Of a stretch of 64,000 bases of DNA, positions 3,159 through 13,560 are shown piece by piece. The position numbers and the translations under genes are program-made. The DNA comes from an uncultured virus (IMG/VR IMGVR_UViG_3300031951_000040). Taxonomy: Duplodnaviria > Heunggongvirae > Uroviricota > Caudoviricetes. Below the pieces are notes generated by a model. That model made no database searches. It saw nothing but the letters and a program-made list of their open reading frames with translations, and was not told the DNA's origin. The stretch is from IMG/VR virus record IMGVR_UViG_3300031951_000040. One strand, given 5' to 3'. Every line of letters starts with the position of its first letter. Positions within the stretch are counted from its first letter, which is position 1.

Positions 3159-3288
3159 TCCCGACGCAGCGGTTCTGAGATGTTACCGAATGGTAAGTTA
3201 CTATTTGGTTAGTTGGCAAGAAAAATAAAAATAAATTTGGTAGAATAAAAAACTCGTTATATCTTTGTATCATAAAATCGACAAAATA

Positions 3289-3837
3289 ATGAAAACACTT
3301 GTAATTCATCCAAAAGACAAATCGACACAATTTTTAGATATTGTGTACGAACCTATACCGAATAAGACAATTATCACGGGTGGGGTAACAAAAGAAGAAG
3401 TTAGAAAACTTATCGACGCCCACGACAGAGTAATAATGTGTGGACACGGAGCACCTATGGGATTGTTCTCGGTTGGACAATTTCCTGGTTCAAATGGTTT
3501 CATCATTGATGAAAGTATGGTGTACCTATTAAAAGAAAAAGACAATTCAATTTTTATTTGGTGTAACGCGGACAAATTCGTTAATCACTTTAAGTTGAAA
3601 GGTTTTTATTCGGGAATGTTTATTTCCGAAGTAGGGGAAGCGTACTATTGTGGTTTACCTGGTACCGAACAAGAAGTAGTTGATGAAAGTAACTATGGTT
3701 TTTGTGAACTTTTATCGGAGTGTATTAACGAACCACAAGATAGAATGTACGAAATCATTAAAAAGGAATATGGTAAGATTGCGGAAGAAAACCCAGTCGC
3801 ACTATACAACCACAACCGCCTGTACTTGTCGATTTAA
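3289..3837 (+). CDS. Hypothetical phage protein with a CGHG motif, alpha/beta pattern
   Basis: ATG at 3289 after the promoter; 182 aa. Confidence 0.75.
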   Translation: MKTLVIHPKDKSTQFLDIVYEPIPNKTIITGGVTKEEVRKLIDAHDRVIMCGHGAPMGLFSVGQFPGSNGFIIDESMVYLLKEKDNSIFIWCNADKFVNHFKLKGFYSGMFISEVGEAYYCGLPGTEQEVVDESNYGFCELLSECINEPQDRMYEIIKKEYGKIAEENPVALYNHNRLYLSI

Positions 3838-3930
3838 TTGGTTTAACTCGGTTGCGGTGGAAAAGGGTAGCAGAAATGTTACCCTTTTTTGTTGCGTTTT
3901 AGTTTCACCTCACAGCACGTGCTGTATCCT

Positions 3931-12289: not shown

Positions 12290-12549
12290 GTTTCTAAAAT
12301 ACTGAAAATCTTCGTTTTAACATACGCCAGGGGGAAAACTGGACGACGGCTGGACGATTTTGTTTGGCAAGAAATACTAGTATTCTTGGTGAATATCCTT
12401 AAAAGTTTTAGTATGTTTGTCATACACAAAGTCAAAGATGTATGTGGAAAAACTTTTTTGAAAAAACTTTAAAAAAAATTTGGAAAAAAAGAAAAACTAT
12501 TATATCTTTGTACCCACATTAAATCTTTAATCTAAAATTAGAAACGAAA

Positions 12550-13305
12550 ATGAGTACAAAAAATGTTCAAGTAAAGTTCACCCAAAATTTGGGTATGTTC
12601 AAACTTCACAATGTAAATCGTGAGGTAGACTCTCCACGCGTTAAGCGTATTACAGACTCGATGAAGAAGGACGGATTAAAACTCGTTCCAATCATTGTAA
12701 ACTCCCAGTATGTGGTTGTAGACGGACAACACCGACTAACCGCAGCAAAAGAAGCGGGTAAAGGTATCTACTTTATTGTAGACAACTCAATCCCCAACAC
12801 CACGAAAGGTATCTTTGAAGCCGCACGTAAGTTCAACCAGAACATGAAAGAGTGGGGTAAGAAAGATTACATTCATGGTTTTTCCGAACAAGGAAACAAA
12901 TCTTACAAAACTTTGGAAGATTTTTCAAAAGAGTTTCCGATGTTTTCTTTGACCGAAAGAATTATGTTACTACAAAATTCTGGTACTCGTCATTGTGACA
13001 AACAAGATTTTGCGGATGGTAAGTTTGTTGTTGGTAATATGGAAACCGCCAAAGAATGGGCGAATAACCTACTCCAACTGAAACCTTACTTTGAAAAGGG
13101 TTACAACAAATCGGTATTTGTTCGTACTATTCTTACCATTATGGAAAAGAAACCCGATTTTAAGTTTGAAGAATTTTTACATAAAGTAAAACTTCGTCCA
13201 AGTTCAATCTATATGTGTGGTGATAAAAAATCATACGCGGAAATGATTGAAGACATTTACAACTACAAGCGTCGTAATGAGGACAAGTTGAACCTTCGTT
13301 TCTAA
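12550..13305 (+). CDS. ParB/Srx N-terminal domain protein
   Basis: NREV...PIIV...VVDGQHRLTA motif. Confidence 0.8.
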   Translation: MSTKNVQVKFTQNLGMFKLHNVNREVDSPRVKRITDSMKKDGLKLVPIIVNSQYVVVDGQHRLTAAKEAGKGIYFIVDNSIPNTTKGIFEAARKFNQNMKEWGKKDYIHGFSEQGNKSYKTLEDFSKEFPMFSLTERIMLLQNSGTRHCDKQDFADGKFVVGNMETAKEWANNLLQLKPYFEKGYNKSVFVRTILTIMEKKPDFKFEEFLHKVKLRPSSIYMCGDKKSYAEMIEDIYNYKRRNEDKLNLRF

Positions 13306-13560
13306 CTTTGGATTAGGGTTAGTGATTGGGGTGACCGAAAGGTTACCCCTTTTTTTTGCTCAAAATTTCACAAGATGTAACATCCTGAAGACGACTCCAG
13401 ATTTTGTTTGGCGGAGTTTTCAACACACAAATGTTTGTAATCCAATAAAAAAGACACTTTTTGTATAAGGTTTTGACAAAAAAGTTGAACAAAGTGAAAA
13501 TATTTGTTGTTTATCGAAAATATTCTTATTACTTTTGTACTGTAATTCAAAAACTTGAAT

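Follow-up and report, generated by a model that had tools for sequence, protein, structure and literature searches.

A probable conserved helix joining the two ends of a ParB-like gene message in very large freshwater phages

The message of a ParB-like gene in an uncultured virus of the Caudoviricetes is predicted to pair its leader with its own 3′ end, and homologous loci with different sequences keep this pairing. Most likely the helix is a real, conserved RNA structure that closes the finished message, as judged from pairing statistics, folding and compensatory changes among homologues. Below we describe the transcription unit, the conservation of the helix, the two leader designs in which it occurs and the function that it may serve. 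The window, by which the whole 64,000-nt stretch of DNA analysed here is meant, is part of a virus record of 114,927 nt (34% complete).

The transcription unit, its product and its end-to-end helix

The ParB-like protein is found in identical copies on contigs of up to 288 kb and as homologues on records of up to 336 kb; the phage family is one of very large freshwater phages. Bases 1–21,000 of the window hold short plus-strand genes, most with their own TTTG–spacer–TAnnTTTG promoter and many with a hairpin–U terminator. This promoter matches the Bacteroidota sigma-A consensus, in which the box lies at −12 to −5 (PMC9723704), and host and early timing are drawn from such signals. We infer that the block is the early region of a Bacteroidota jumbo phage. 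Its layout is cassette-like over 1–21300, with some 18 copies of the promoter, often with the word TTGGCA on the 5′ side, and with recurring terminator hairpins. The element TGTATGACA is present in ten exact copies (2167–24211), all within the first 25 kb, one of them at 12418–12426, 5′ of the promoter of the ParB-like gene. Among the neighbouring early genes, 14113–14934 matches GP88 (PF17338) and 6538–7428 matches DUF932 (PF06067); no ParA was found among the immediate neighbours scanned with Pfam and PHROG, on a contig that is 34% complete. The ParB-like unit comprises the following features, promoters and terminators here and below being calls from the sequence.

12479–12510, plus strand: Bacteroidota sigma-A-type promoter, with TTTG at 12479–12482, a 20-nt spacer and the TAnnTTTG box at 12503–12510; the same promoter precedes most genes of 1–21 kb
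12517–12548, plus strand: 5′ arm of the helix, taking up almost all of the predicted leader (−33 to −2, counted from the AUG)
12550–13305, plus strand: 251-aa ParB-like gene, with an N-terminal domain of ParB/Srx fold (DGQHR motif) and a helical C-terminal part, ending NLRF-stop
13295–13324, plus strand: 3′ arm, comprising the last 8 coding bases, the stop codon (13303–13305) and the trailer to 3 nt before the terminator stem
13328–13357, plus strand: intrinsic-terminator-like hairpin (9 pairs) with a U tract

With +1 predicted from the promoter at about 12515, the gene is a stand-alone unit with a predicted monocistronic transcript of about 843 nt (about 12515 to 13357). Its trailer is 22 nt long and its leader has no Shine–Dalgarno (SD)-like stretch.

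The label 'ParB-like' given to the gene by the earlier note is borne out. The protein matches phrog_12305 (E = 6e-22), and the Foldseek matches of its AlphaFold model (pLDDT 74.8) are N-terminal domains of ParB, Noc and KorB. VIA-align pairs the model with PadC (Z = 10.7, r.m.s.d. 2.4, 92 aligned), KorB (Z = 10.5, 2.1, 86) and sulfiredoxin (Z = 10.1, 3.3, 84), all over residues 3–101, and PF02195 is assigned to 16–28% of the members of its Atlas clusters. The modelled N-terminal domain is thus of the ParB/sulfiredoxin fold; the C-terminal part reaches VIA-align Z values of up to 5 without a clear match. The terminal NLRF (13291–13305) is invariant in the seven aligned proteins and is probably a protein motif, since its codons differ between the leader classes described below; we take this ending to resemble sliding-clamp-binding motifs.

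Complementarity between 12527–12548 and 13295–13316, originally reported with 19 Watson–Crick pairs, two G:U pairs and one mismatch, was recounted with exactly this result. The helix is longer, however, than was claimed: 12517–12522, 12525–12536 and 12538–12548 pair with 13295–13305 and 13307–13324, giving 29 bp and −28.8 kcal/mol. It begins about 2 nt past the predicted +1, stops 3 nt short of the terminator stem and is found in both the minimum free energy and the centroid folds of the full predicted transcript. No other 22-nt plus-strand stretch in the 64 kb window reaches 16 or more Watson–Crick pairs with the leader arm. Compared with cross-gene pairs, the leader–trailer duplex has z-scores of −7.8/−7.3, which makes it the strongest for the 39 promoter-driven genes on the 115 kb contig; the runners-up have −3.5/−2.7 and −3.0/−1.9, the latter being the gene at 3289–3837.

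Part of the stretch is contained in 16 RNA runs, and in four of these, from four studies, contigs cover most of the ParB-like gene. Such contigs show presence in the libraries and carry no information on ends, level or circles; the runs were moreover selected using the ParB-like gene itself, so that expression cannot be ranked from them. No backward joint indicative of circular RNA was found in the contigs of the four metatranscriptome runs, a neutral result at a depth of 4–10, since contigs drop rare forms.

Conservation, covariation and occurrence in other units

Three scans yielded 121 homologous loci, many of them on the same contigs; seven were dropped (cut or without a start) and 62 distinct ends were retained. 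With a leader window fixed at 34 nt, pairing was detected in just 20 of the 62; this window was abandoned, because it misses the arms of one class of loci (class 2), which sit further upstream. It was replaced by promoter-anchored leaders, with six arms reset by hand, the class 2 arms thus having been defined after the 34-nt pass. With these arms, the helix is better than at least 99 of 100 trailer shuffles in 53/62 distinct loci with 38–100% protein identity (21/24 in class 1 and 32/38 in class 2), a control that is inflated by the relatedness of the loci. The mean energy is −17.4 kcal/mol for own pairs and −10.3 kcal/mol for cross pairs. Seven of the nine non-significant loci keep a helix of 9–24 bp; the remaining two, L029 and L087, have a promoter and a terminator and no helix. 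These two (L029:2953–3797 and L087:1452–2297) are natural helix-less alleles with leaders of 22–23 nt, and their nearest neighbours in the tree, L014 and L088, bear the helix.

Because the arm analysis was adjusted after looking at the data, two further calculations were also relied on. An automated promoter-to-ATG pipeline with no hand-set arms placed 9/11 ParB units ahead of all 40 shuffles, and whole-transcript partition functions for 19 loci gave 16–28 leader–trailer pairs in 17 and 2–3 in L029 and L087. Where a helix is present it comprises 9–32 bp, with a median total of about 19–20 pairs and a median longest stack of 11 bp. In 61/62 loci a terminator-like hairpin is located no more than 100 nt from the stop codon; trailers are short (22–28 nt), and in 52/53 significant loci the first base of the 3′ arm falls between −11 and +7 of the stop. 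The first paired base is at most 2 nt from the predicted +1 in 27/52 loci, and 9–19 predicted leader bases are unpaired at the 5′ end in 15/52. Neither coverage of the start nor a hidden 5′ end is universal; what stays constant is that a helix links the leader with the stop-to-terminator spacer.

Covariation points to the RNA level. The leader pairs better with its own partner than with a swapped one in 1841 of 1891 locus pairs, with 23 ties; for 27 chosen pairs, mostly tree neighbours, 13 favour the own partner by more than 1 kcal/mol, 11 tie and three favour the swap. In the 11 class 1 sequences that could be aligned, 96% of the positions of the inner 9-bp helix are paired, compared with 29–57% in slid registers. 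Compensatory changes in homologues, which had been proposed as a check, were found in double-sided form at the stop codon, where the middle base (UAA/UGA) makes U–A in three and C–G in eight sequences, and at the last Phe wobble, where the pair is G–C in nine and A–U in two; these counts are of sequences and not of independent events, which are few. Both positions are ones at which the protein permits change.

The sense-strand duplex is stabler than its antisense counterpart in 55/62 loci, which favours RNA over DNA, although trailer composition contributes too. Together with the compensatory changes this upholds the proposal of an RNA-level panhandle. The argument first advanced for it, that the G:U-compatible differences favour an RNA function, carries little weight by itself, because the trailers have a G/U-rich composition in any case (the best 14-nt windows contain 36 G:U and 13 A:C). 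That the arms are instead DNA inverted repeats of a mobile cassette, or a chance product of A/C-rich leaders facing U/G-rich trailers, is highly improbable. Leaders and trailers are weakly complementary even across loci, as the cross-pair mean indicates, and units without a terminator still show a small excess over shuffles; the arms, however, belong to the transcript, both being located between the promoter and the terminator, their sequences vary across loci yet match their own partners, the sense strand is favoured and the z-scores within the genome fall below −7.

A second case of end pairing had been put forward in the same early block, where the features are as follows.

3260–3267, plus strand: promoter box TAnnTTTG of the second gene, predicted +1 at about 3272
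3275–3284, plus strand: 10-nt 5′ arm, ending 4 nt before the ATG at 3289
3289–3837, plus strand: 182-aa gene of no known family
3826–3835, plus strand: 3′ arm, the last codons and the first base of the stop
3863–3890, plus strand: terminator-like hairpin with a U tract (called by script)

The two arms indeed match in 10/10 Watson–Crick pairs, a duplex that is weak alone (−12.2 kcal/mol). Among homologues of this gene (80 loci, of which five were dropped as cut or unparsed), pairing occurs in 5/45 distinct ones; each of these is a stand-alone copy that has a promoter and a terminator to itself, and one, L164, pairs through a different 14-bp sequence. With so few, the pairing cannot be called general in this family. 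The 182-aa protein has no Pfam or PHROG match, its Atlas clusters are unnamed and its model is uninformative (pLDDT 46.9, best Z = 6.0); His-Gly and Cys motifs after predicted strands may recall clan CD peptidases. In a third family, phrog_6186, 4/7 stand-alone copies beat all shuffles, compared with 0/49 others.

A survey of 134 promoter-led units from this contig and its relatives scored pairing as strong if it was −11 kcal/mol or lower and better than all shuffles. Strong pairing occurs in 5/38 non-ParB units in which the terminator follows a trailer of at least 8 nt, versus 0/85 others (Fisher p = 0.002, related units not collapsed). Over the 38 other stand-alone units the own and cross energies are alike (−6.3 and −5.8, p = 0.58), and the notion that all early mRNAs of these phages are panhandled was rejected on this ground. 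In Flavobacterium phage lillamy9-1, where the homologue is part of an operon, the helix is missing (−3.0 kcal/mol). Predicted end pairing is a recurrent device tied to the monocistronic layout, and is near-fixed only for the ParB-like gene.

Leader classes, the class 2 hairpin motif and access to the start codon

In class 1 (24 loci, the window included) the 5′ arm adjoins the ATG. In class 2 (38 loci) the arm lies further upstream and is followed by a conserved motif and then by the ATG. The helix accordingly reaches −10 to +1 of the AUG in 21/21 significant class 1 loci and ends at −41 to −29 in 32/32 significant class 2 loci. A quick protein tree gives six changes between the leader classes, at least four of them forced by well-supported branches.

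The class 2 motif, which does not occur on this contig, consists of a short hairpin between fixed flanks, with the consensus CGGGGA-CAG-loop-CTG-AACA, and the AUG lies 9–12 nt downstream in 38/38 loci; one example lies at L033:2898–2960, with 37 other class 2 loci and similar occurrences in L203–L326 and L340–L388. Its 3-bp stem covaries, being CAG/CTG in 33 loci (22 parsed by script and 11 read by eye from its printout), CGG/CCG in four and TGG/CCA in one. A search of Rfam 15 with 11 loci, covering panhandle arms and class 2 motif at E values of up to 1, returned three weak matches far below the gathering score, none of them on the leader. A scan of viral contigs found the motif in at least 124 stretches; among the matches listed, 57 are distinct and in low-GC context, 51 of these have an open reading frame starting 8–12 nt downstream, and the genes so led encode unrelated proteins. 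The motif was also found in low-GC Bacteroidota and Patescibacteria assemblies, with a search pattern that required the ATG.

G002 and G004, both class 2 jumbo phages, carry the motif once per 60 kb, at the ParB-like gene, and it is absent from G000, from 60 kb each of G001 and G003, and from 20 kb of G005; yet elsewhere it precedes unrelated genes. A phage-wide regulon and an operator of the ParB protein were both discarded on this pattern, and an element for a host factor or the ribosome seems likelier. SD sequences sit at a similar fixed spacing from the start; that the motif positions ribosomes would be our guess, and a repressor site is possible. The literature searched, which left most subscription papers outside, held no account of the motif; it was not found in the supplements of PMC10690425 other than files 1, 2 and 4, in which it may be listed. 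Nine motif-led genes followed by a terminator (in L204, L209, second copy, L222, L230, L238, L260, L262, L267 and L281) also pair leader with trailer (8–24 kcal/mol, 0–1 of 60 shuffles as good), and all except that of L230 encode proteins unrelated to ParB. Another motif-led gene, L233:991–1491 on the minus strand, encodes a Tad2-like (Thoeris anti-defence) domain (E = 6e-21).

The leader should be open during transcription, because the 3′ arm is made last. For the window gene the predicted unpaired probability at −20 to −1 is 0.51–0.59 while the RNA is nascent and drops to 0.12 once the transcript is complete, and predicted access at −15 to −1 is 0.04–0.19 in 5/8 of the helix-bearing class 1 loci folded. 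When at the stop codon, a ribosome would cover the coding part of the 3′ arm and the next several bases. Modelled with the first 6–9 trailer bases held, such a ribosome frees −16 to +1 and leaves −33 to −17 paired, the remaining helix having −7 to −10 kcal/mol.

These values bear on the suggestion of the earlier note that the panhandle blocks initiation once the transcript is complete. The finished trailer would fold back and block 30S loading, so that the protein would be made only in a co-transcriptional burst; for class 2 loci, what it removes would be an upstream single-stranded A/U standby region and not the start site. For the window gene this is plausible, given that the helix covers −33 to −2, that predicted access drops from 0.57 to 0.12 and that it is low in the five class 1 loci above. 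It also fits the promotion of initiation in F. johnsoniae by adenines at −3, −6, −12 and −13 and by low structure (PMC6847099), the precedents of icaR (PMC3868564) and AapA/hok (PMC6733600), and the known reduction of expression by distant pairing with the ribosome-binding site (PMC12697547). It does not account for the whole family, since the helix ends 29–41 nt before the AUG in 32/53 loci, with the start region outside it; and a loaded polysome should hold the helix open, so little of it remaining when a ribosome stands at the stop. Delayed shut-off as the general function is therefore rather unlikely.

The same model allows another effect, in which a ribosome that terminates opens the inner helix and thereby uncovers the tethered start, with coupling through unfolding or through reinitiation by the same subunit. 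Phage monocistronic mRNAs would then form a protein-free bacterial 'closed loop', aided in class 2 by a ribosome-recruiting structured element at SD-like spacing. The position of the 3′ arm at the stop codon, the release of −16 to +1 while the outer pairs persist and the class 2 motif, at its fixed spacing from the AUG and abutting the inner end of the helix, would all suit such a loop, and coupling by RNA unfolding is established for the neighbouring genes MS2 coat/lysis and rpmI–rplT (PMC12548453). A trailer of 22–28 nt, however, largely forces the arm to lie near the stop and the remaining tether is weak; the correlation between coupling and structure just past the stop was negative in one screen (PMC12548453), and the literature searched held no bacterial example. 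We regard self-coupling as unlikely.

Favoured function and relation to known systems

The reading that we favour, at a probability of roughly 0.45, is an hbs-like helix that determines what happens to the mRNA once it is finished; in the class 1 lineage, icaR-like damping of initiation would come on top. Leader and stop-to-terminator trailer would form the intramolecular helix only once the 3′ end has been made and the stop codon is free of ribosomes; we infer that ribosome traffic would gate it. The conserved core would be the outer helix, by which the leader is anchored at the foot of the terminator. This core would decide what becomes of the message, most likely because it keeps nucleases away from the leader and trailer, both single-stranded and A/U-rich. 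In class 1 the helix also spans the initiation region, so that it would damp new initiation on finished, ribosome-poor transcripts, and each terminating ribosome would reopen −16 to +1. In class 2 it would stop short of the separate hairpin motif located 9–12 nt before the AUG. The alternative offered in the earlier note, that the panhandle protects or processes the mRNA ends, agrees with this reading.

Protection of the hbs type is favoured because most loci leave the start free, because geometry and energy match hbs and because the pairing tracks both transcript ends. A pure stabilizer is doubtful for class 1, since compensatory changes keep the helix at −10 to +1, which a stabilizer would not need. 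Several observations count against the hbs-like reading: the 5′ end is not hidden in the 15/52 loci with unpaired leader bases; L029 and L087 manage with a promoter, a terminator and no helix; most other stand-alone early genes have no unit-specific pairing; and in Bacillus subtilis reporters, long-range pairing to the ribosome-binding site promoted decay (PMC12697547).

Processing or decay through the helix has also been considered. RNase III can cut helices in the size range found here, and by cutting this one it would remove the leader end together with the terminator, clearing or maturing the early message in the manner of icaR or rRNA stalks. RNase III cleaves the duplex of icaR (PMC3868564), and the total pairs and longest stacks of the phage helices would suffice. 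The helices are, however, bulged, A/U-rich and widely variable in length (9–32 bp), and no sequence position is conserved across both classes; such a stalk is distinctly unlikely.

The phage helix resembles hbs and icaR and is assigned to neither. In B. subtilis hbs, a 14-bp, −19 kcal/mol helix joining the 5′ UTR to the 3′ UTR ends just before the terminator and lengthens the half-life (Braun, Durand and Condon, 2017; PMC5737220). Both are A/U-rich intramolecular helices of similar energy that link the leader to the pre-terminator stretch of a short mRNA, and leader complementarity just upstream of the terminator is present in 53/62 of the phage loci, where compensatory change is natural covariation and not an engineered rescue. 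The phage helix differs in filling most of a short leader and the whole trailer, in often crossing the stop codon, in occurring in a phage whose hosts do not use SD sequences and in showing compensatory change across proteins down to 38% identity. The hbs helix masks an endonuclease site; the phage helix is not known to do so.

In Staphylococcus aureus icaR (Ruiz de los Mozos et al., 2013; PMC3868564), as in class 1, 3′ sequence pairs over the message's own initiation region; such coverage of the ribosome-binding site is found in 21/21 significant class 1 loci, the window included, and in 0/32 significant class 2 loci. The icaR pairing relies on an anti-SD motif within a long 3′ UTR, whereas the phage has no SD and a trailer of about 22–28 nt. 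The ends of the full-length hok and aapA type I toxin mRNAs likewise pair after transcription ends (PMC6733600); the phage product is, however, a 251-aa ParB-fold protein and not a small toxin, and no metastable start-hiding hairpins were seen in its nascent RNA, as the access of 0.51–0.59 reflects. Like the MS2 coat/lysis and rpmI–rplT pairs (PMC12548453), the phage has a helix that hides a start and that a ribosome near a stop would open, but its start and stop belong to the same gene, 750 nt apart.

Records of long-range interactions in bacterial mRNAs are scarce, a preprint of 2025 citing three studies (PMC12697547), and the literature searched, with most subscription papers outside it, held no report of end pairing in the mRNAs of Bacteroidota phages. 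The phage case adds unusually deep natural covariation, two interchangeable leader designs and the helix-less controls L029 and L087, and three gene families show pairing only in stand-alone transcription units. The class 2 motif exposes an uncatalogued start-linked RNA element in phages of the Bacteroidota, a group in which initiation signals are poorly understood. The system as a whole provides a ready test of the effects of end-to-end pairing on a bacterial-type message, and of closed-loop ribosome recycling in bacteria.
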